The translations under genes and the position numbers were made by a program. Below, piece by piece: positions 19,633 through 60,258 of a stretch of DNA of 64,000 bases. The notes beneath the pieces were generated by a model, which had not been told where the DNA came from, searched no databases, and worked only from the letters and a program-made list of their open reading frames with translations. The stretch is taken from positions 49,251 to 113,250 of the forward strand of contig JBPOIA010000003.1 of NCBI GenBank assembly GCA_052034975.1. Reading direction: 5' to 3'. This DNA is from Candidatus Moraniibacteriota bacterium. Lineage in GTDB: Bacteria; Patescibacteriota; Minisyncoccia; Moranbacterales; UBA1568. Each line of letters opens with the position of its first letter. The stretch's first letter is position 1.

Positions 19633-21225
19633 ATGTACGATATCATCATCAAAAACGGGGTCATTGTCGACGGCAGCGGCCGCCCGATGTACCGTGCCGA
19701 TCTCGGTATCCGGGAGGAACGCATCGTCGAAATCGGGGATCTGTCACATACACAGGGCTCGCAGGTTATCGACGCCACCGGACAATACGTAGTGCCCGGT
19801 TTCGTTGATGTCAACAATCATTCCGATACGTACTGGGAATTACTGAGGAATCCGAAGCTCGAAGCGATGCTCGCGCAAGGCGTGACGACTATCGTCGGTG
19901 GAAATTCTGGATCGTCGCTCGCCCCGCTTACTGATCCGGGCGTCATCCGTTCCATCCAAAAATGGACGGATGTTGAGAAGATCAATTTCAACTGGCTGTC
20001 GATGGAGGAATTTTTGCGCGAGGCAGACAAGCGCCGTCCAGCCATAAACTTCGCGACGCTCGTCGGACACGGAACGTTGCGGCGCGGCGCGATGAAGGAC
20101 GAGACACGTACCATCACGCCGGAAGAGATCGCCGTTATGCAGAAAATGCTTCGGCAGGCTCTCAAGGAGGGTGGCATCGGATTCTCGACCGGACTGAAAT
20201 ACACGCACGCCCGTGGCGCCGGTGTACGCGAGCTTATCGCTCTCACAAAAACGGCGCTCGCTCAAAACGGCCTGTATGTCACATATGTCCGCGACGAGGA
20301 AGAGGGGTTGGTGAAGTCGGTCGAAGAAGCGATTCTGGTCGCACGGGAAACCGGCGCCCCGATCCACATCTCTCACCTCAAAGCCGTCGGCGAGAAGAAT
20401 TGGCCGTTGATGGACGATGTCTTCAGTCTGATCGAAACCGCGGCACTAAACGACATCAAAATCACGTTCGATGTGTATCCTTATACGGTGACCGGATCGG
20501 TATTGTATACGTTCCTTCCGGAATGGGTGACACAGGACGGCCGGAAAATGATGCTCGAACGTCTGCGTGACGCCCAGGTGCGGAGTGCCGTACTCCGTGA
20601 TATGCGACGCAAAGACATCGATTATTCGCAGATGCTCATCACCTCATCGTCGCTTTCGAAGATGCTTACGCGCCGGAGGATTTCGGAGATCGCCGAACTT
20701 CAGGGCAAGCCGCCCGAAGAGACTGTTCTCGATTTCCTCATCGCGAGCTCTGGCCGCGCCATCGTCTCGCTCGAAGTGCTCTCGGAAAAGAACGTCCGTC
20801 GGGCGGTGCAGCATCCGTTCTCGATTATCTCGAGCAACGGTGTCGGATACAACATCGCCCACAAGGAGACCGGCGAGCTTGTTCACCCGCGCAATTTCGG
20901 AACGTTTCCGAAAGTATTTGCGGAGTATGTACGCAAGGAGAAATCGCTTGGTTGGGAAGAAGCAGTACACAAGATGAGTGGCAAGCCAGCGCTCAAATTC
21001 GGTCTTGATCGGCGCGGATTTCTCCAAGAAGGCTATTTCGCCGACGTCGTTGTCCTTGATCCGAACACAGTCGAGGACAAAGCGACGATGGAAGATCCGT
21101 ACCAGTATCCGATCGGTATCTCACACGTCATCGTGAACGGCATCGTGGCGCTCGAAAATGGAGCGTTCTCCCCGCGTCGTGCCGGGATGATCCTCAAAAG
21201 GAAGAGCGGTTGGCTCCCGTGGTAG
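19633..21225 (+). CDS. N-acyl-D-amino-acid deacylase (D-aminoacylase) family amidohydrolase
   Basis: MYDIIIKNGVIVDGSGRP..VVPGFVDVNNHSD..TTIVGGNSG..ISHLKAVG. The ORF-track start at 19630 is GTG; the ATG at 19633 has AAGGAG upstream. Confidence 0.85.
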   Translation: MYDIIIKNGVIVDGSGRPMYRADLGIREERIVEIGDLSHTQGSQVIDATGQYVVPGFVDVNNHSDTYWELLRNPKLEAMLAQGVTTIVGGNSGSSLAPLTDPGVIRSIQKWTDVEKINFNWLSMEEFLREADKRRPAINFATLVGHGTLRRGAMKDETRTITPEEIAVMQKMLRQALKEGGIGFSTGLKYTHARGAGVRELIALTKTALAQNGLYVTYVRDEEEGLVKSVEEAILVARETGAPIHISHLKAVGEKNWPLMDDVFSLIETAALNDIKITFDVYPYTVTGSVLYTFLPEWVTQDGRKMMLERLRDAQVRSAVLRDMRRKDIDYSQMLITSSSLSKMLTRRRISEIAELQGKPPEETVLDFLIASSGRAIVSLEVLSEKNVRRAVQHPFSIISSNGVGYNIAHKETGELVHPRNFGTFPKVFAEYVRKEKSLGWEEAVHKMSGKPALKFGLDRRGFLQEGYFADVVVLDPNTVEDKATMEDPYQYPIGISHVIVNGIVALENGAFSPRRAGMILKRKSGWLPW

Positions 21226-21284
21226 GAAAATCCGAGTCTTAAAATAATCGAGGTGTTAAAGACATCAATTTCTAAGGCGGAATT

Positions 21285-22031
21285 ATGGAGAAAAATTTCA
21301 AAAGAATATTGACAATAGGAATTCTCATCATCTTGATATCAGGGATCGTTCTTTTTTTGGTGGGTTTTTTTGAAAAGACCAAGATACAAGAGAACTCTTC
21401 TCGGATTTCGTTATCTGATAGGGGAGATGAACAAAAACGAGCCGAACAAAAAGCAATAGAGGATAAAATCAATCAACTTTCCGATACGAAAGAGTGGCAG
21501 TTATTTACCAGTAGAAAGTGTGACTTTTCTTTTATTTATCCTCCTATTGCAAGTATTAATAGTGCATGGATGAACGTTCTTGACCCTCGAGATGCCTGTG
21601 AGCTTGTGGTATACATTCAAGATGGCGTTGTATCATCGGAATATTTTCACTTTCACATCAGGCCTTTACCCTATCCATCTCCATACGAAAACTTTAATCC
21701 GAACAAATTAACAGAAAATACGGTAAAGGACTGGAACGCAAAAAAAGTAGCAGAAGAACTGTTGAATCTCAACAAAACTGTATTTGTAAAAAAATATAAT
21801 AGAGAAAATACCTTAATTCCTATAGTAGAAATTCCTGTGAATGGGAAAAAGGCATACACGTTTTCACTTAATGACGGCTACTTCAATTGGGCTGGTGATT
21901 CACATAATCTTGAAAATAAAACGAGTTTTGCTTATATAGCAGACAATGAGGGGAAAGTATATGAAATCACCTTTCCAAGCAATGATAGACTTTCATTGTT
22001 AATCCTCAAAAGTTTAAAGTTTTCGAACTAA
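21285..22031 (+). CDS. Hypothetical N-terminally membrane-anchored protein encoded in a low-GC (about 33%) segment
   Basis: ATG with AAGGCGG RBS. N-terminal TM ILTIGILIILISGIVLFLVGFF. Composition is markedly more AT-rich than neighbours. No recognisable domain. Confidence 0.6.
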   Translation: MEKNFKRILTIGILIILISGIVLFLVGFFEKTKIQENSSRISLSDRGDEQKRAEQKAIEDKINQLSDTKEWQLFTSRKCDFSFIYPPIASINSAWMNVLDPRDACELVVYIQDGVVSSEYFHFHIRPLPYPSPYENFNPNKLTENTVKDWNAKKVAEELLNLNKTVFVKKYNRENTLIPIVEIPVNGKKAYTFSLNDGYFNWAGDSHNLENKTSFAYIADNEGKVYEITFPSNDRLSLLILKSLKFSN

Positions 22032-22054
22032 ATCCATAACACAAGAAAAAGAAA

Positions 22055-22088
22055 AACGCCTACCTGCATAATTTTGCAGGCAGGCGTT
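22055..22088. terminator. Bidirectional terminator hairpin between convergent genes
   Basis: AACGCCTACCTGCA-TAATT-TTGCAGGCAGGCGTT, a 13/14-bp stem with A/T-rich flanks on both sides. Confidence 0.7.
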
Positions 22089-22105
22089 CATTGTTTCAAG
22101 AAGTT

Positions 22106-23707
22106 TTATGGGATGGCGCCCATATACTCAAACTTCACCGCATCCACAGTGATAGATTTAGCTGTTTCTCCAGTGTTCCCTTGTAGGCTCACGGTCGAAT
22201 TCCCGGTAGCATAGAGATTGTAAGTCCCTATATCTACCCAGCGGTTAGAGCCTTGGGCAGCCGTGTATTGGTTCACAGTCTGGGAGGTATACGTCGTCCC
22301 GTTACTGCTTACGGTATACGTCGTACTCGTGCTGCTCGCGTATGTCGTGTTGGCAGGAACATATACCCATACCCTGTACTGGCCATTCTTGGGTAGCGCG
22401 GGTGACCAATTGGCGGTTCCCGAAGAGTTGGTTTCCTTGCTGAAGATGATGCCGCTATAGCCCAGCTGCGGAGATCCTGGGTTGAAGTTTGCTCCTTGGC
22501 GGCTCCAGTCGCCGATTGTGCTGGACGAGCCATTGCAAGTGGGAGTTGTGGAATTGAGTTTGAAAGTGCCCGTGCACTCGTACGGATGTACGACTAAACT
22601 AAAGGACGTCGACTCTGCTGAATACCACCCGTTGTTGATCAATTCGGAAGGATCCACTCTATTACTGATTTCAGCCCAGCTATAGGGAGTAGTTAGATAG
22701 CTATTGGGATCATTCTTCCGAATTTCGAAGTGCAGATGGGATACATACTGACCATCACCGGTCCCCACCTGCCCAACGGCTGCCCCCTTGAGAACAGGGC
22801 TGTTTTCAGTGCCTACCAGATCAAGCACTGAGTTATAACCCGTTTGACCGGATTTCAGCAGATGTGCATACATCGCATAGACTGTGGTAAGGAGCTCTCC
22901 GGTACCGGTAAGGAAGTATTTACCGGCCGGTGCGTCATGGCGAATGAGCACGGTCTTCCCCCAACCGTCAGAACTGCTTCCATCATTGATGTCTTCAATT
23001 TTGCCATTAGAAATGGCATAGAGAGCCTCACCAAGATCATCGCTCCCGCTTCCCTTGTTCCAGTCTTCGGCTACATGCGGAACACCGTTTGTGTTGTTGA
23101 GAGATCCGTAGCTTTGTTTTTCTGCGCCCCAACCATTGGGACTGGCTATGGTGTAATCCACAGGGTAGCGCATTGAAACGAAGAAGTATTCAGACTTTGA
23201 GAGAATCTTTTGCCCGCCAGCATCAAAGTTGAAATTGCAGTGATAGTTCGAAGATTGGTAATCAAAGTCTGTTTCTTGGTAGACGTCAACCGATGACTTG
23301 AGGTACGCATCATCGAAACAGATGGGATTTGCCAACCCAAACCAATACGGATCATCAGGGTCTTGCGACTGCGTGTACTCGTAGACGTAGTCATTGCCGT
23401 TTCCGTAGATGTCGTCGACGCTGTTGACGAGCAAGACCTTCGGTGAGCTGAAGAACTTGAAGACAGAATACCCACCGTGGAATTTGGCGGTACCGTTGTA
23501 GAAGTAGGTCGCCGCCTTCTCGGCCCCGTAAGAGTCGTTACTCAAGGTGATGATCTGCAACGCTTTGGTGTAAGTCGTTCCGTTGTGGGTATACGGAAGT
23601 ATGTAGTGCCCCGGACTTGTGGGGGCAGTGGCAAAAGCCGCGATCGAGCAGAGGTTTAACAGGAATACGCCGATGAATTTCATCGGTGCGGACAGAATCC
23701 TTCTCAT
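22106..23707 (-). CDS. Secreted M23-family (LytM-like) metallopeptidase with long Ser/Thr/Asn-rich C-terminal domain
   Basis: AGGAG is 8 nt upstream of the ATG at 23707. Signal peptide MKFIGVFLLNLCSIAAFATA. M23 motif GQVGTGDGQYVSHLHFEIRKN (HxH). C-terminal 170 aa are T/S/N/Y-rich (TTYASSTSTTYTVSSNGTTYTSQTV). Confidence 0.8.
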   Translation of the reverse strand: MRRILSAPMKFIGVFLLNLCSIAAFATAPTSPGHYILPYTHNGTTYTKALQIITLSNDSYGAEKAATYFYNGTAKFHGGYSVFKFFSSPKVLLVNSVDDIYGNGNDYVYEYTQSQDPDDPYWFGLANPICFDDAYLKSSVDVYQETDFDYQSSNYHCNFNFDAGGQKILSKSEYFFVSMRYPVDYTIASPNGWGAEKQSYGSLNNTNGVPHVAEDWNKGSGSDDLGEALYAISNGKIEDINDGSSSDGWGKTVLIRHDAPAGKYFLTGTGELLTTVYAMYAHLLKSGQTGYNSVLDLVGTENSPVLKGAAVGQVGTGDGQYVSHLHFEIRKNDPNSYLTTPYSWAEISNRVDPSELINNGWYSAESTSFSLVVHPYECTGTFKLNSTTPTCNGSSSTIGDWSRQGANFNPGSPQLGYSGIIFSKETNSSGTANWSPALPKNGQYRVWVYVPANTTYASSTSTTYTVSSNGTTYTSQTVNQYTAAQGSNRWVDIGTYNLYATGNSTVSLQGNTGETAKSITVDAVKFEYMGAIP

Positions 23708-23894
23708 TTCAATTCTCCTGATTCATAGAGTGGTAAAACGGATTTGGACAACACTTCTAGCTGTCATTTCATAGCATTTCCCCTTTCGTATTGTTAATGA
23801 ACCGGTTGAGATTATCAGAGGGGTGGTTCCTTGTCAAGTCGTCATTTTTTGTTTTTGACGCTAGAGGGTGTAAAATGGCGGATATCGCACACGT

Positions 23895-51674: not shown

Positions 51675-52268
51675 CTATCGGTAGGCGCTGACGCGCGAGG
51701 AGTATTGCTTGAGATTCTCCAATTGCCGGCTGTTCAGAGTCTTTGATTTCTCGATACCTTGATTGATCAGGGTTTTCGAGAATTCGATGGACGTCTCGGT
51801 CGTTACGGTGCCGCCGGACCACTTCACGTTCTTGCGAAGATAATCCTCGATGTAGACTTTGTGTTCGGCCGTCAGCGAGGAATCGGCGTTCTTCTCGAGG
51901 TAATGGGCGAGCGCACGGCGGGCCAAATGAGTTGTCCCGTTTCCGCGTTCAGCCTGCTCGATGAAGGAGGCTTCGGTCTCGCGGCTGAGTTCCGGCGTCA
52001 CGACGACACTCGGCTTCACTTCCGCTTGGACGTCTTCGAGAGCCGTGTCTGTTTCTGAGATGTCGGCGACGCCTGTCGAGCCTTTCGTTTCGAGTAACGA
52101 GCCGGTCTCATCGGAGGCGATCTGTGAGCGTTGGGAATACGAATAGATTCCGAATGCGATCGCGGCGACGATGAAGACACTGACAATGATGCGGAGATTT
52201 TCTTGGATCCACGCCTTTGCCTGATTGGCGGACGTGTCCTCGAACATCGGATCTTGCTGTTCTGTCAT
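51675..52268 (-). CDS. Hypothetical membrane-anchored protein
   Basis: The ORF-track start at 52277 is GTG; ATG is at 52268 (MTEQQDP). TM IIVSVFIVAAIAFGIYSY. Followed by a shared terminator. Confidence 0.55.
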   Translation of the reverse strand: MTEQQDPMFEDTSANQAKAWIQENLRIIVSVFIVAAIAFGIYSYSQRSQIASDETGSLLETKGSTGVADISETDTALEDVQAEVKPSVVVTPELSRETEASFIEQAERGNGTTHLARRALAHYLEKNADSSLTAEHKVYIEDYLRKNVKWSGGTVTTETSIEFSKTLINQGIEKSKTLNSRQLENLKQYSSRVSAYR

Positions 52269-52680
52269 AGTATGCACCTCTCTTTCTAGATTAAGCTGAG
52301 ATTTTTTAAAGTGCGCTTGCGTTGAAGCCGCTGGCCAGAAAACGCGTGTGCGTTTTCAGCCGTATCGACCCCCGTCTTTCCATAGTAGAGCGCACACTTT
52401 CCACTGTCAACTAGACAAAAATACCGTTTTTCAGCTTAATAAAAGGATTTTTTCCAGAGAAAAAGGAGTTTTTCCGAATGCGATAAGAAACGGCGATTTT
52501 TCATTCGTGCAAAACGGAGGCGCAGAAAATTTTTCTGTCTCGCACGGAGACGATCATCCGTTTTGTTGTACGACGCATCGGAAATATTTTTTGAGAAATT
52601 TTTTTCTATAATTTTTTTAGTCAAGAAAAAAAATTTTGCATTCATCACGCACAGACTCTTGACACGTATTCATTTTCTCT

Positions 52681-52707
52681 TTGCATTTCTGAAAAAAAGA
52701 GTATAAT
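52681..52707 (+). promoter_or_regulatory. Candidate promoter TTGCAT-15-TATAAT driving the micro-ORF leader
   Basis: -10 TATAAT at 52702-52707 is perfect; -35 at 52681-52686. About 150-nt leader with hairpins (ATACGG..CCGTAT at 52716-52736; TCGCATA..TATGCGA at about 52808-52826) before the SD. Confidence 0.5.
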
Positions 52708-52860
52708 AAAAACATACGGAAGAATTTTTTCCGTATCGCGTACAGAAACACAAATGTCGCGTTAAAAAATAAAAAAGAAATTCCTCTTCCCGGATATTCT
52801 GATTCGCATAAACCTATGCGACAGAGAAGAAGGGAAGCGGTTCTGGAGGAGGTGACTATT

Positions 52861-52941
52861 ATGGCAGCCAAGAAAAAAGTAGCGAAGAAGAAGACCGCGA
52901 AGAAGACGACCAAAAAGAAGGCCACCAAGAAGCGCAAGTAA
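52861..52941 (+). CDS. 26-aa lysine-rich micro-protein (MAAKKKVAKKKTAKKTTKKKATKKRK)
   Basis: Not in the ORF track because it is under 60 codons. Strong SD GGAGGAGGTG 7 nt upstream. Its own promoter and structured leader lie upstream, and an intrinsic terminator lies immediately downstream. Confidence 0.55.
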   Translation: MAAKKKVAKKKTAKKTTKKKATKKRK

Positions 52942-52972
52942 TGTTGCCTTCGGTTCTTTTGGTTCGACAAAA

Positions 52973-53005
52973 CAAAAACCCCGAAATCGGGGCTTTTGTT
53001 TTTTT
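52973..53005. terminator. Bidirectional terminator AAAACCCCG-AAAT-CGGGGCTTTTGTTTTTTT between the micro-ORF (+) and prmC (-)
   Basis: Hairpin plus T-tract on plus, A-tract on minus. Confidence 0.7.
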
Positions 53006-53014
53006 AAAGAAACG

Positions 53015-57979: not shown

Positions 57980-58051
57980 GCCACCTTAGCTCAGAGGTAG
58001 AGCAGCGGTTTTGTAAACCGTTGGTCCTCGGTTCAAATCCGAGAGGTGGCT
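57980..58051 (+). tRNA. tRNA-Thr (anticodon UGU)
   Basis: Cloverleaf fits: acceptor GCCACCT/AGGTGGC, D-arm GCTC..GAGC, anticodon stem GCGGT/ACCGT with loop TTTGTAA (U33, UGU, A37), T-arm CTCGG-TTCAAAT-CCGAG, discriminator T. No encoded CCA. Confidence 0.85.
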
Positions 58052-58084
58052 CCGAGTGTTGTAAAGAGAAGAGTATTTTGAAAA

Positions 58085-58167
58085 GGGTAGGTGGCGGAGT
58101 GGTCAATCGCAGCTGACTGTAAATCAGCCGACTTCGGTCTACGGGGGTTCGAATCCCTCCCTGCCCA
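58085..58167 (+). tRNA. tRNA-Tyr (anticodon GUA), type II with long variable arm
   Basis: Acceptor GGGTAGG/CCTGCCC (one G-U), anticodon stem GCTGA/TCAGC with loop CTGTAAA, 14-nt variable arm, T-arm GGGGG-TTCGAAT-CCCTC, discriminator A. Confidence 0.85.
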
Positions 58168-58177
58168 CGAGAATAAA

Positions 58178-58219
58178 CTATAAAAGCACCATTACCGGGT
58201 GCTTTTATAGTTTTGTTTT
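58178..58219 (+). terminator. Terminator hairpin after tRNA-Tyr: CTATAAAAGCACC-ATTACCG-GGTGCTTTTATAG + TTTTGTTTTG
   Basis: 13-bp perfect stem plus T-rich tail. A sequence-related hairpin recurs at 58369-58410 after the second copy of the tRNA 3' end. Confidence 0.65.
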
Positions 58220-58243
58220 GAGGGAGGGATTCGAACGGGCAGG
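58220..58243 (+). repeat. Inverted partial copy of tRNA-Tyr T-arm/3' end (GAGGGAGGGATTCGAAC) followed by GGGCAGG, the complement of the tRNA-Tyr 3' acceptor strand
   Basis: Reverse complement GTTCGAATCCCTCCCTC matches tRNA-Tyr 58147-58162 at 16 of 17 positions. Confidence 0.6.
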
Positions 58244-58349
58244 AACGAGTAGCGAGCGAAGGCGAGCTAAACGAGTGTCGACGGATGCGCGTGAGCAAAC
58301 ATTCGTCGCTGCCCCGGGCAACGAAGTCGTCAGCAGACGACGAGGCGAA

Positions 58350-58366
58350 AATCCCTCCCTGCCCAC
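58350..58366 (+). repeat. Direct 17-bp repeat of the tRNA-Tyr 3' end (AATCCCTCCCTGCCCAC)
   Basis: Identical to 58152-58168. Followed, like the tRNA copy, by a related AT-rich terminator hairpin and TTTTGTTTG-AG(G/T)..GGAGGGAT. Confidence 0.6.
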
Positions 58367-58511
58367 AGAAAGTAAAAAGTACCCTGCGGGGTATTTTTTA
58401 CTTTTGTTTGAGTTGGAGGGATGAAAAGGGCGATAGCTAGACTTTTTGTGAAAAAACGTTAGAATAAGAAAAGTCTCAACGAATAGTTGAGGCTCGTATT
58501 TTTGAAAATAA

Positions 58512-58584
58512 GCCGTTGTAGCTCAGCTGGTAGAGCACCACCATGGTAAGGTGGGGGTCACCGGTTCAATCCCGGTCAACGGCT
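58512..58584 (+). tRNA. tRNA-Thr (anticodon GGU)
   Basis: Acceptor GCCGTTG/CAACGGC, D-arm GCTC-AGCTGGTA-GAGC, anticodon stem CCACC/GGTGG with loop ATGGTAA, T-arm ACCGG-TTCAATC-CCGGT, discriminator T. Confidence 0.8.
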
Positions 58585-58677
58585 CAGAAAGAACGGAAAA
58601 TGAAGGTTCAATGTTGACGGAACGACGGTTTTCGCGTACAGTGAAAAAGCTTTGTAAATCGTTTGAAGGTTGGAGTT

Positions 58678-58839
58678 ATGGGACAAATCAAGGATACGAT
58701 GGTAAAACTCAAATGTTCTTCGTGCAGCCGCATCACGCACTACACCAAGCGGAACAAGAAAAAGGTCAAGGAAAAGCTTGAGCTCTCCAAGTATTGCAAG
58801 TTTTGCAAGAAGAACGTGATACACACCGAGAGCAAGTAG
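58678..58839 (+). CDS. rpmG: 50S ribosomal protein L33 (zinc-ribbon form)
   Basis: Absent from the ORF track (53 aa). ATG with GAAGGTTGGAG RBS. MGQIKDTMVKLKCSSCSRITHYTKRNKKKVKEKLELSKYCKFCKKNVIHTESK fits the L33 pattern C-x2-C..Y..KN..(K/R)LEL.KYC.xC.KH..H.E.K. Lies between tRNA-Thr and tRNA-Trp as in the conserved thr-tyr-gly-thr / rpmG-trp neighbourhood. Confidence 0.85.
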   Translation: MGQIKDTMVKLKCSSCSRITHYTKRNKKKVKEKLELSKYCKFCKKNVIHTESK

Positions 58840-58879
58840 CTCTCGGTTTTTCAGATAATTTGTTACAATAGTCTTGAAA

Positions 58880-58950
58880 GGGAGTGTCGTATAGTGGCAG
58901 TACAACGGTCTCCAAAACCGTTAGCGGGGGTCCGATTCCCTCCACTCCTG
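58880..58950 (+). tRNA. tRNA-Trp (anticodon CCA)
   Basis: Anticodon arm ACGGT-CTCCAAA-ACCGT is nearly identical to the E. coli tRNA-Trp anticodon arm. Acceptor GGGAGTG/CACTCCT (G1-U72), T-arm GGGGG-TCCGATT-CCCTC. The predicted C at position 55 is unusual and should be checked with a covariance model. Confidence 0.75.
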
Positions 58951-59055
58951 CGGAGTAAAATAAAAAATTGAAGAATCAAAGATGGAAATTGATGTGTCTG
59001 CCAAAGGCGGAGAGGACGTTTTTTCATTTTGATATTTGATTTTTTATATTGTTAC

Positions 59056-59127
59056 GGCCCTATCGTCTATCGGCTAGGACATCAGGTTCTCATCCTGGAA
59101 AGCGGGGTTCGATTCCCCGTAGGGCTA
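59056..59127 (+). tRNA. tRNA-Glu (anticodon CUC)
   Basis: TCGTCTA..GGAC D-arm, 4-nt variable loop and GGGGTTCGATTCCCC T-arm, as in bacterial tRNA-Glu. Anticodon loop TTCTCAT. Confidence 0.8.
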
Positions 59128-59132
59128 CAGGT

Positions 59133-59177
59133 ATCAATAAAAATCACCTTTCTTTTTGGAGGGTGATTTTTATTGAT
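59133..59177. terminator. 16-bp perfect hairpin ATCAATAAAAATCACC-N13-GGTGATTTTTATTGAT downstream of tRNA-Glu
   Basis: Perfect 16-bp inverted repeat. AT-rich arms act as U/A tracts in both directions. Confidence 0.65.
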
Positions 59178-59337
59178 ATTTCTATCTCAGGGGAATCCTT
59201 CTCTCTAGCAAGGCTACATTTTGAAAATCCTCGTAGAAGCAGGGATTTTTTGACAAACCTATTTTGATATCTTATCCTGCAAGACCGGTTTTGACCGGTC
59301 TTCTGTCCATTAACAACCGAAGAAAGAGAGGTGGAAA

Positions 59338-60258
59338 ATGGCGACGTTCAATGAGAAGCTGCAAGCGAAGTGGAATGAGGGGAAATTCGTCTGTGTCGGG
59401 CTCGACAGCGAGCTCGGCAAGATTCCTAAATGTGTCAGAGTGCTGGATTCGAGGCACTTGGAACGTGACATAACCTTGTTCAATCAGGTTGTTGTAGATG
59501 CGACGCATGATCTTGCTTGTGCGTATAAGCCGAACCTTGCGTTCTATATCGCACATGGAGATCGTGGCCTTTGGGCTCTGCGTGATACGACGCAGCACAT
59601 CCATACCATTGCCCCTGATGTTCCCGTGATTCTCGATGCCAAGAGTATGGACATCGGCAATACCAATGCCGGTTACGTGCAGATGGCGTTTGAGTATTGT
59701 GGTGCCGATGCAATTACAGTGAATCCCTATCTCGGTATGGAAGCGGCTCAGCCATTTCTCGACCAGAAGGACAAGGGCATCATCGTGCTCTGTCGTACGT
59801 CGAATAAGGGCGCAGGGGAATTCCAGGATTGCAAAGTCCAACTTCCAACCCTGTATCCTGGCGGTAAGCATGAAGAATTCTTGCAGTTTGAGAAGAGGAT
59901 TGGCTATCAGTTGTCCGAAACCTGCGTTCCGCTCTATCAGTATGTCGCTTTCCACGTGGCCGAGCATTGGAACACGAATGGCAACTGTGCGCTCGTCGTC
60001 GGGGCGACGTGTCCGGAAGAGCTTACGCGGGTCCGTCGGATTGTCGGTGATATGCCGATTCTCATCCCAGGTATCGGTGCGCAGGGTGGCGACGTGGAGG
60101 CGACTGTGAAAGCGGGGATAGATAGCCGCGGGCAGGGGATGATCATCAATTCCTCGCGTGGCATCATCTTCGCCTCAGACGGCCCGGATTTTGCCGAAGC
60201 CGCTCGTCGCGAGACGGAAAAGCTTCATAATCTCATCAACCAGTACCGCAACTCATAA
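59338..60258 (+). CDS. pyrF: Orotidine 5'-phosphate decarboxylase, type 2 (long form)
   Basis: AGAGAGGTGG RBS. VCVGLDSE..YKPNLAFY..ILDAKSMDIGNT..PGIGAQGG. Confidence 0.85.
   Translation: MATFNEKLQAKWNEGKFVCVGLDSELGKIPKCVRVLDSRHLERDITLFNQVVVDATHDLACAYKPNLAFYIAHGDRGLWALRDTTQHIHTIAPDVPVILDAKSMDIGNTNAGYVQMAFEYCGADAITVNPYLGMEAAQPFLDQKDKGIIVLCRTSNKGAGEFQDCKVQLPTLYPGGKHEEFLQFEKRIGYQLSETCVPLYQYVAFHVAEHWNTNGNCALVVGATCPEELTRVRRIVGDMPILIPGIGAQGGDVEATVKAGIDSRGQGMIINSSRGIIFASDGPDFAEAARRETEKLHNLINQYRNS

Follow-up and report, generated by a model that had tools for sequence, protein, structure and literature searches.

The window analysed here, a 64-kb stretch of contig JBPOIA010000003.1, is ordinary chromosome. 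It contains two convergent genes that face each other across a spacer of 74 bp. Gene A (22106-23707, minus strand) encodes a secreted M23 metallopeptidase of 533 residues with the Pfam domains Peptidase_M23 and Golvesin_C. Gene B (21285-22031, plus strand) encodes a protein of 248 residues, predicted to be type-II membrane-anchored and to have a PsbP_2/Mog1-type fold; we refer to gene B and its homologues as the partner. Between the two stop codons lies a GC-rich palindromic hairpin (22054-22089) with a 15-bp stem, followed by a run of T on the minus strand, which is the strand of the peptidase gene. Gene B is conspicuously AT-rich, with a G+C content (GC) of 0.347 overall and of 0.333 at third codon positions (GC3), and a first-pass annotation of the window had suggested recent horizontal acquisition. 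The analysis presented here indicates that the AT-richness is an inherited, gene-specific property of gene B and not the trace of a recent transfer.

Composition and inheritance of the AT-rich gene

Gene B is the lowest-GC segment of its length (747 bp) in the 64 kb (the minimum starts at 21281; mean 0.511, sd 0.030, z = -5.4), an anomaly that exceeds the variance of the window and is not a trivial fluctuation. In a 300-bp profile, GC dropped from about 0.53-0.59 to 0.34-0.38 across about 21200-22100 and was back at about 0.51 by 22100-22400. The low-GC stretch (about 21230-22100) consists of gene B alone and part of the spacer. By codon position, the GC of gene B is 0.398, 0.309 and 0.333, the last value compared with a GC3 of 0.47-0.70 in the other open reading frames (ORFs) of the window and of about 0.52-0.70 in the convincing genes. 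The peptidase gene is typical of the window (GC 0.504, GC3 0.592). The first-pass annotation, which had described a low-GC islet with two convergent genes in flanks of roughly 55% GC, was right about the convergence and about the low GC of 21285-22031, but the islet does not include the peptidase gene. The flanks, although far richer in GC than gene B, are at about 51-55% and not uniformly at 55%.

In order to split the deficit into its components, the codon usage of 32 long ORFs of the window was taken as the reference. About half of the deficit is due to amino-acid composition: the GC predicted for the gene B protein is 0.443, compared with 0.523 +/- 0.012 in the reference genes (z = -6.4), and N, K, I, F and Y are enriched, A, G and R depleted. 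The remaining half or so is due to synonymous choice, which lowers GC from 0.443 to 0.347 (GC3 0.333 against 0.568 expected, z = -5.5) and rules out amino-acid composition alone as the cause. Gene B leans on codons that are rare in the genome (TTA, ATA, AGA, CCT, GCA, GTA), in agreement with the deviating codon usage that had been noted before. Two other patches of the window are also low in GC. The second-lowest (52278-53014, minimum 0.395) contains low-complexity frames only, with neither a convincing ORF nor an Rfam family, and the third-lowest (58306-59550, minimum 0.42) overlaps a cluster of five tRNA genes at 57980-59128 (Thr-TGT, Tyr-GTA, Thr-GGT, Trp-CCA, Glu-CTC). Being an ORF-less stretch and a tRNA cluster, they were rejected as kin of gene B.

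A search of 5.8e9 proteins with the gene B protein returned the protein itself and only two relatives, with 64% and 54% identity. In both cases (loci L001 and L002) the small gene is convergent with a gene for an M23 peptidase with Golvesin_C of 533 or 541 residues. Both small genes are AT-rich (GC 0.376 and 0.401, GC3 0.33 and 0.39), and their peptidase genes have a GC3 of about 0.6. A transferred gene had been expected to have hits outside the lineage; the two that were found stand beside the same type of peptidase. The outer flanks of the pair are an amidohydrolase gene and murD in the window, genes for a PKD/LTD protein, DUF4012 and HisRS in L001, and genes for DnaJ and RecJ in L002. L002 is identical to L011 (CAZATJ010000007.1), which is titled 'uncultured Bdellovibrionales'. 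This label is probably wrong, because the pair of L011 is among those closest to the pair of the window, and the named members of the 90%-identity cluster that contains the MreB of the window are without exception Candidatus Moranbacteria/Moraniibacteriota.

Further loci were fetched starting from the peptidase family, which has 24 homologues, all of them metagenomic or from the candidate phyla radiation (CPR). The small gene, the terminator hairpin and the M23 gene recur together in Patescibacteria, at no fewer than 10 loci besides the window, and what flanks them mostly differs from locus to locus. The first-pass annotation had itself named conservation of the pair in related genomes as an observation that would speak against transfer. 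The recurrent partner gene is convergent, AT-rich and N-terminally anchored in its product, which has no Pfam family. Partners have 279 residues and a GC of 0.398 in L006 (locus GC 0.557), 238 residues and 0.272 in L008 (0.350), 373 residues and 0.400 in L009/L010 (0.528), 233 residues and 0.393 in L012, a Candidatus Moranbacteria metagenome-assembled genome (0.536), and 241 residues and 0.336 in L022 (0.388). The first-pair partner of L028 has a GC of 0.385 (0.441) and that of L030 a GC of 0.392 (0.467). In every lineage, the partner (GC 0.27-0.40) is lower than its locus (0.35-0.56), with a deficit of 5-17 GC points, and the adjacent M23 genes have a GC3 of 0.55-0.66 in mid-GC genomes.

An M23 gene was the neighbour of all 14 partner-family genes with readable context, and 13 of these pairs are convergent. 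The contexts counted were those of the window, L001, L002/L011, L006, L008, L009/L010, L012, L022, L028 (two pairs), L029 (two pairs), L030/L031 and L034; the contig of P0051, with 981 bp, has no readable context. Seen from the other side, 10 of the 11 loci with an M23+Golvesin_C gene have a partner. Members of the partner family also pair with M23 genes without Golvesin_C. L028, L029 and L034 are alternating arrays of the form partner -> <- M23, and in some genomes two or three M23/partner pairs, with shuffled N-domains, stand in tandem. Chloroflexi loci L013-L021 match the Golvesin_C part only, at 24-35% identity, and were not counted as orthologues. L002 (7942-9084) and L012 (8000-9352) have a second AT-rich gene past the partner, with PsbP-like W..Y...F.YP motifs, a gene that the window lacks. 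The last part of L012, starting at about 9800, has a GC of about 0.70-0.74 as against about 0.37-0.54 before, and this contig may be a chimeric assembly.

The members of the pair diverged together. Partner identity between lineages tracks the identity of the catalytic and carbohydrate-binding parts of the peptidase (Spearman 0.49) and not that of its N-domain (0.07), with non-independent comparisons and a p-value that is only indicative. Between the window and L001, the synonymous divergence (dS, by NG86 near saturation, so that the values are rough) of the partner was 1.74 and that of the C-part of the peptidase 1.75; between the window and L002, the two values were 1.34 and 1.61. The ratio of nonsynonymous to synonymous divergence (omega) was about 0.06 for the enzyme and 0.14-0.26 for the partner, the latter values marking the partner as a genuine gene that is kept by purifying selection. 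Partner GC3 is near 0.33 in both the window and the L001 lineage despite a dS of about 1.75. With equal dS, this indicates that synonymous sites were largely replaced without amelioration. Between L001 and L002, dS varies strongly along the module (catalytic part 0.24, partner 0.81, N-domain saturated), which suggests recombination breakpoints inside it.

If gene B, or the two genes together, were a foreign islet recently acquired from a low-GC donor, this would explain the deviation in composition (z = -5.4) and codon usage (z = -5.5) and also the very small number of close homologues among 5.8e9 proteins. It would not explain that orthologues stand beside the same peptidase in relatives and are AT-rich in all of them, or that dS matches that of the native-looking neighbour (about 1.75) with no sign of amelioration. 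Moreover, the partner is below the host even in genomes of 35-39% GC (0.272 in L008, 0.336 in L022), so that no donor composition fits. The borders of gene B showed short chance repeats only, with no att-like repeats and no mobility genes such as an integrase, and the nearest tRNA gene, at 57980, is 36 kb away. No relative turned up when viral contigs were scanned with the alignment of the peptidases, that of the partners being too divergent for such a scan, and a phage origin was rejected on these grounds. Taken together, we regard a recent acquisition as very improbable. Gene B is rather a counter-example to the equation of low GC with recent transfer, its anomaly being inherited, confined to this gene and maintained although synonymous divergence has gone to saturation.

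The stability of the anomaly raises the question of what maintains the AT-richness. The GC3 equilibrium of the partner is gene-specific and lies 20-30 points below that of neighbouring genes. One explanation, which concerns composition only and which we consider rather unlikely, is a neutral by-product, a weakly expressed and fast-evolving gene drifting to an AT-biased mutational equilibrium. The partner does evolve fast (18-39% identity between lineages, compared with 52-64% for the catalytic part) and with a higher omega, and neighbouring lineage-specific anchored genes are AT-rich too (380 residues and GC 0.384 in L002, 450 residues and 0.365 in L012, and 0.372 for a DKNYY protein gene in L028). 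However, the equally hypervariable N-domain of the peptidase has a GC3 of 0.59-0.77 in mid-GC genomes, a control that makes it less likely that fast evolution by itself lowers GC. An omega of 0.14-0.26 reflects real constraint, and the offset is present across genomes of 35% to 56% GC. A general AT-richness of membrane-anchored genes is ruled out by an anchored protein encoded at 51675-52277 with a GC of 0.549. Candidate causes are a turnover process specific for this class of genes, selection on the AT-rich nucleic acid itself and, as our preferred guess, selection that acts on expression by way of rare AT-ending codons.

The two products and the hairpin

The gene A product begins with a signal peptide (residues 1-27; 23627-23707, minus strand), recognized by inspection, with a hydrophobic h-region and the end SIAAFA/TAP. 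AxA-type signal peptide ends are kept in the gene A homologues of alignment A1. The catalytic region (residues 180-363; 22619-23170, minus strand) contains H211xxxD215, H282 and H324xH326, and H211-x3-D215, H282 and H324-L-H326 are invariant in 11 homologues. We take these residues to correspond to the active-site residues of LytM, as known for the family. The match to PF01551 is marginal (E 9.2e-7, 29.4 bits against a cut-off of 28.7) and covers 108 residues (226-333) but only 79 of the 96 model positions, which points to extra sequence within the catalytic domain. The first-pass annotation had recognized a signal-peptide M23 peptidase with an HxH motif, and the hydrophobic N-terminus running to AFA/T, the motif GQYVSHLHFEIRKN at residue 319 and the above-threshold PF01551 match all agree with it. 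Searches against the sequences of solved structures, with the gene A profile, with the catalytic part alone (E <= 10) and with the C-terminal part, gave nothing, the best match being PliG (E 0.39, not significant). As far as the sequence tells, the gene A product is apparently an active M23 peptidase.

The N-domain that precedes the catalytic region (residues 28-179; 23171-23626, minus strand) is hypervariable and shuffled, belongs to no recognized family, has a GC3 of 0.67, and was modelled by AlphaFold2 with low confidence. Its identity between lineages is 20-30%, but reaches 64% between the window and L006, although the catalytic parts of these two are only 55% identical. The domain also occurs in P0021, a 'Candidatus Pacebacteria' M23 protein with a different catalytic domain and no Golvesin_C. 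Since L006 and P0021 share this N-domain despite divergent or different catalytic parts, it must be shuffled between such genes. Near-identical N-termini (MRTFILILCLLCSGLANAFDWSRLPPPKPIPFTENGVTYDAFVQT) were also seen on M23 paralogues that differ in their catalytic and C-terminal parts, in L012 (5428-7056), L028 (433-762 and 3408-4718) and L029 (2797-4134).

The C-terminal domain (residues 364-533; 22109-22618, minus strand) is a predicted beta-sandwich of the Golvesin_C/CBM6-CBM35 kind (CBM, carbohydrate-binding module). PF25275 matches residues 414-527 (1.6e-15, 57.8 bits against 31.6). The full-length model is poor (predicted local distance difference test, pLDDT, 44), and only the C-terminal domain was interpreted; it is all-beta with a pLDDT of 55-88. 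Foldseek matched it to xanthan lyase (6f2p, 3e-6), CBM6 (2cdp/2cdo) and CBM35 (2w1w/2vzp). The C-terminus and the catalytic part are conserved together, with 52-64% identity across lineages. Of the two alternatives that the first-pass annotation had offered for this region, the carbohydrate-binding module is supported by the PF25275 and Foldseek matches, whereas a glycosylated linker does not agree with a folded, conserved beta-sandwich. The InterPro domain CBM6-CBM35-CBM36_like_2 has two characterised members, golvesin and xanthan lyase (PMC9166713). Compared with golvesin of Dictyostelium and xanthan lyase of Bacillus/Paenibacillus, the domain is here fused to an M23 peptidase, and T, S, N and Y make up an unusually high share (44%) of its 170 residues, a dominance that had been noticed from the start. 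Upstream of gene A, the divergent intergenic region between murD and the peptidase gene (23708-23894) contains, by eye, TTGACA-15 nt-GATAAT and a GGAGA ribosome-binding site before the peptidase ATG; the promoter-like elements failed the spacing rule of a promoter scan.

Pfam (E <= 0.1) and NCBIfam scans found no family for the gene B protein, and neither did the PsbP_2 and PsbP models. The protein has a transmembrane anchor at about residues 8-30 (21306-21374, plus strand), with a Kyte-Doolittle maximum of 3.1 at 8-26 and an AlphaFold2 helix at 3-30. K3, K6 and R7 precede the hydrophobic helix, and neither an AxA site nor a lipobox Cys is visible. By the positive-inside rule, we infer a type-II anchor with the N-terminus inside and the C-terminus outside. 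The ectodomain (about residues 68-248; 21486-22028, plus strand) begins with EWQLFTSRKCDFSFIYP and ends with LLILKSLKFSN. The partners are homologous at 18-39% identity and have in common the anchor, a W-x-T/F-Y/F...G-F/Y-x-F-x-Y-P start and a ...(T/S)(F/L)K(F/E)(S/I)N end. An almost invariant anchor, M[DN]NKKIPTCLGTAILVVIAITAGAFVWVYEK, heads otherwise unrelated ectoproteins, namely PsbP-like proteins, the 170-residue P0037 and a DKNYY-domain protein whose version of the anchor is more divergent (L028 2137-3219, 4771-5409 and 5543-6796; L029 1818-2525 and 4323-4835; L034 2038-2697). This anchor may be a sorting or assembly signal; that of gene B in the window differs from it.

The AlphaFold2 model of the gene B protein (mean pLDDT 64, core 70-90) is an alpha-beta-alpha sandwich. 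Its fold relatives (scores in brackets) are BT_1490 (10.9), Tsi3 in complex with the muramidase Tse3 (10.1), Apa (9.6), cyanobacterial PsbP (9.2), LpqN (9.0), Mog1 (8.9), TplEi (8.5), PA0094 (7.8), SciW (7.1), Tli4 (7.0) and DcrB (6.9). A profile search with the partners retrieved 3,453 representative proteins at E <= 1e-3, many with 2-5 tandem units, and these match Pfam PsbP_2 (PF18933) and PsbP (PF01789). An AT-rich gene of L012 encoding 450 residues also matches the partner profile. Alignment by hhalign of the subfamily of the window (3 sequences) with 14 PsbP_2-matching proteins gave a probability of 96.6% and E 5.4e-10 over 194 columns. Sequence and fold evidence, independent of each other, agree in placing the gene B protein as a divergent PsbP_2-like ectodomain of a single unit, carried by a membrane anchor.

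The hairpin between the genes is the sole match to CGCCTNC-N8-22-GNAGGCG in the window, and the idea that it is a dispersed repeat was rejected for this reason. The palindrome ACGCCTACCTGCA-N4-6-TGCAGGTAGGCGT is kept in the DNA of 10 of 13 spacers, among them those of the window, L001, L002, L006, L008, L012, L022, L028 and L030. Its conservation extends to loci whose partner proteins share about 20% identity and to genomes with a GC anywhere between 35% and 56%. In the window, the minimum free energy of the hairpin is -29.6 kcal/mol in the sense of the peptidase RNA and -24.0 kcal/mol on the other strand. The peptidase-sense hairpin is the more stable one in 7 of 8 loci, because its G.U pairs correspond to A.C mismatches on the other strand. 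We read the hairpin as a putative bidirectional intrinsic terminator that is tuned mainly to the peptidase mRNA. It is conserved beyond the needs of a terminator and may be a protein-binding site as well.

Possible roles of the pair

We propose that the pair is a vertically inherited two-gene module of Patescibacteria, placed here between the amidohydrolase gene and murD. The two genes are separate transcription units and face each other across the conserved hairpin. The gene A product would be a Sec-exported zinc M23 (LytM-type) peptidoglycan endopeptidase with a swappable N-domain, which Golvesin_C probably targets to glycan. The gene B protein would stay in the membrane of the producer by its uncleaved helix and display its single PsbP/Mog1-fold domain outside. 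There, at the producer surface, the ectodomain would bind the cognate peptidase and restrain or position it, making the gene B protein a self-protection (immunity) factor or a tethering regulator. We advance this role of a cognate binding partner tentatively and with slightly less than even confidence, as binding, inhibition or tethering, and topology are all inferred.

The choice between an inhibitor or immunity role and a tether or activator role of the partner is close. The fold precedents Tsi3, TplEi and Tli4 would favour immunity by analogy, and so do the faster evolution of the partner, which is 2-4 times that of the catalytic part of the enzyme, and the tandem arrays. Adjacency to the cognate hydrolase across lineages, as expected of an immunity gene, was seen in 14 of 14 contexts. 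Convergence, the housekeeping neighbourhood in the window and an enzyme that is strongly conserved speak rather for a regulated autolysin.

Several points weigh against the proposed role. The members of a toxin-immunity pair are as a rule encoded co-directionally in one operon, but the two genes here converge on a terminator instead of forming a bicistron on the same strand. The PsbP/Mog1 fold is a generic scaffold for binding of proteins or ligands, found in chaperones, lipoproteins and photosystem subunits, and the fold alone is no proof of immunity. The model of the gene B protein is only moderate (pLDDT 64, one good model of five, an alignment of 14 sequences). L007 has the orthologous peptidase with no partner and is the sole such locus. 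The pair loci are phylogenetically related, so that counts of pairs overstate their independence. Finally, the position amid murD, murA, mreB and ftsQ fits a growth autolysin with its regulator equally well as a weapon with its immunity factor. The genes of the window include those for GAPDH, Amidohydro_3, MurD, glutamate dehydrogenase, a Pyr_redox_2-family oxidoreductase, an EPSP_synthase-family (MurA-type) protein, MreB, glycosyltransferases and an FtsQ-type protein.

The neighbourhood of murD, with murA, mreB and ftsQ nearby, is also what speaks for a housekeeping autolysin system, in which the anchored PsbP-like protein would recruit or activate the M23 enzyme at the cell's own wall for growth or division, without inhibiting it. 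Control by a membrane partner is common among M23/LytM factors (EnvC-FtsEX, NlpD). An omega of about 0.06 indicates strong conservation of the catalytic part, as one would expect of a core function, and the pair is seemingly present in most of the sampled relatives. Yet the linkage to murD is not conserved and flanks vary between genomes, tandem M23/partner arrays with shuffled N-domains look more like diversifying, conflict-type loci, the partner outpaces the enzyme 2-4 times in evolution, and CBM-like targeting together with a hypervariable N-domain would be unusual for a system that activates a division amidase or peptidase. We consider this explanation somewhat unlikely. Still less probable, in our view, is a full and hitherto undescribed CPR self-protection system with a wall-lytic M23-CBM enzyme directed at host or competitor, the anchored PsbP-like protein as its cognate, co-evolving immunity factor, and an AT-rich, rare-codon sequence that selection maintains in all lineages for its expression setting. 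An episymbiont (CPR) context, as suggested by the first-pass annotation, is plausible, given the Candidatus Moranbacteria cluster of MreB and the Moranbacteria origin of L012. That the two genes have no functional link, being neighbours through a common terminator and seldom split by rearrangement, would agree with convergent genes that are not co-transcribed. Their adjacency has, however, outlasted the rearrangement of all surroundings and recurs, within tandem arrays, for M23 genes of different subtypes, some lacking Golvesin_C, and with 14 of 14 informative contexts paired we regard mere neighbourhood as improbable.

Comparison with known systems

How CPR episymbionts handle their own walls and those of their hosts is largely unknown, and most CPR surface proteins are unannotated. 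The pairing of an M23 peptidase with a PsbP-like protein, of which our literature searches found no description, is a concrete and testable candidate for a system of enzyme and controller. In addition, a family that had no annotation, with about 3,450 representative relatives, now has a fold and a genomic context.

The gene A product shares HxxxD, the catalytic His and HxH with LytM- and lysostaphin-type M23 peptidases and passes the Pfam threshold narrowly. The PsbP_2/PsbP/Mog1/DcrB/LpqN superfamily consists of alpha-beta-alpha sandwich domains, and the gene B product is too divergent for the Pfam model itself. It differs from other members of the PsbP_2 superfamily as a single domain on an uncleaved N-terminal helix, by its fixed pairing with M23 and by its persistently AT-rich gene.

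In Pseudomonas aeruginosa, the muramidase Tse3 acts via the type VI system and is encoded co-directionally with Tsi3. The two (PDB 4luq) are a secreted peptidoglycan hydrolase and its cognate immunity protein, and Tsi3 is 7% identical to the gene B product. In the present pair, by contrast, an M23 peptidase would be exported by Sec, the gene order is convergent, and inhibition is only proposed. A likeness in gene arrangement is offered by lysostaphin/Lif and zoocin A/Zif, in which a secreted M23 bacteriolysin with a C-terminal wall-targeting domain is encoded next to an oppositely oriented immunity gene. The gene A/B pair likewise combines a secreted M23 enzyme and a C-terminal targeting domain with a neighbour on the other strand. 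However, Lif and Zif are cytoplasmic FemABX-type enzymes that confer immunity by altering the cross-bridge, and the targeting domain of these systems is SH3b-like, whereas here a surface protein is proposed to bind the enzyme and the targeting domain is CBM6/35-like.

With respect to composition, Rhs/CDI loci of E. coli combine a GC-rich core with an AT-rich toxin tip and immunity gene. As a lead rather than a test, the pair resembles them in the sharp and long-lived contrast between a conserved enzyme gene and a small, fast-evolving neighbour. It differs in that the variable N-domain of the peptidase has a normal or high GC3, whereas the toxin tip of Rhs/CDI loci is AT-rich. The components of the pair (an M23 enzyme, a CBM-like domain, the PsbP fold, a hydrolase with an adjacent controller) are of known kinds, and it is the stable compositional dichotomy between the two genes that is unusual.

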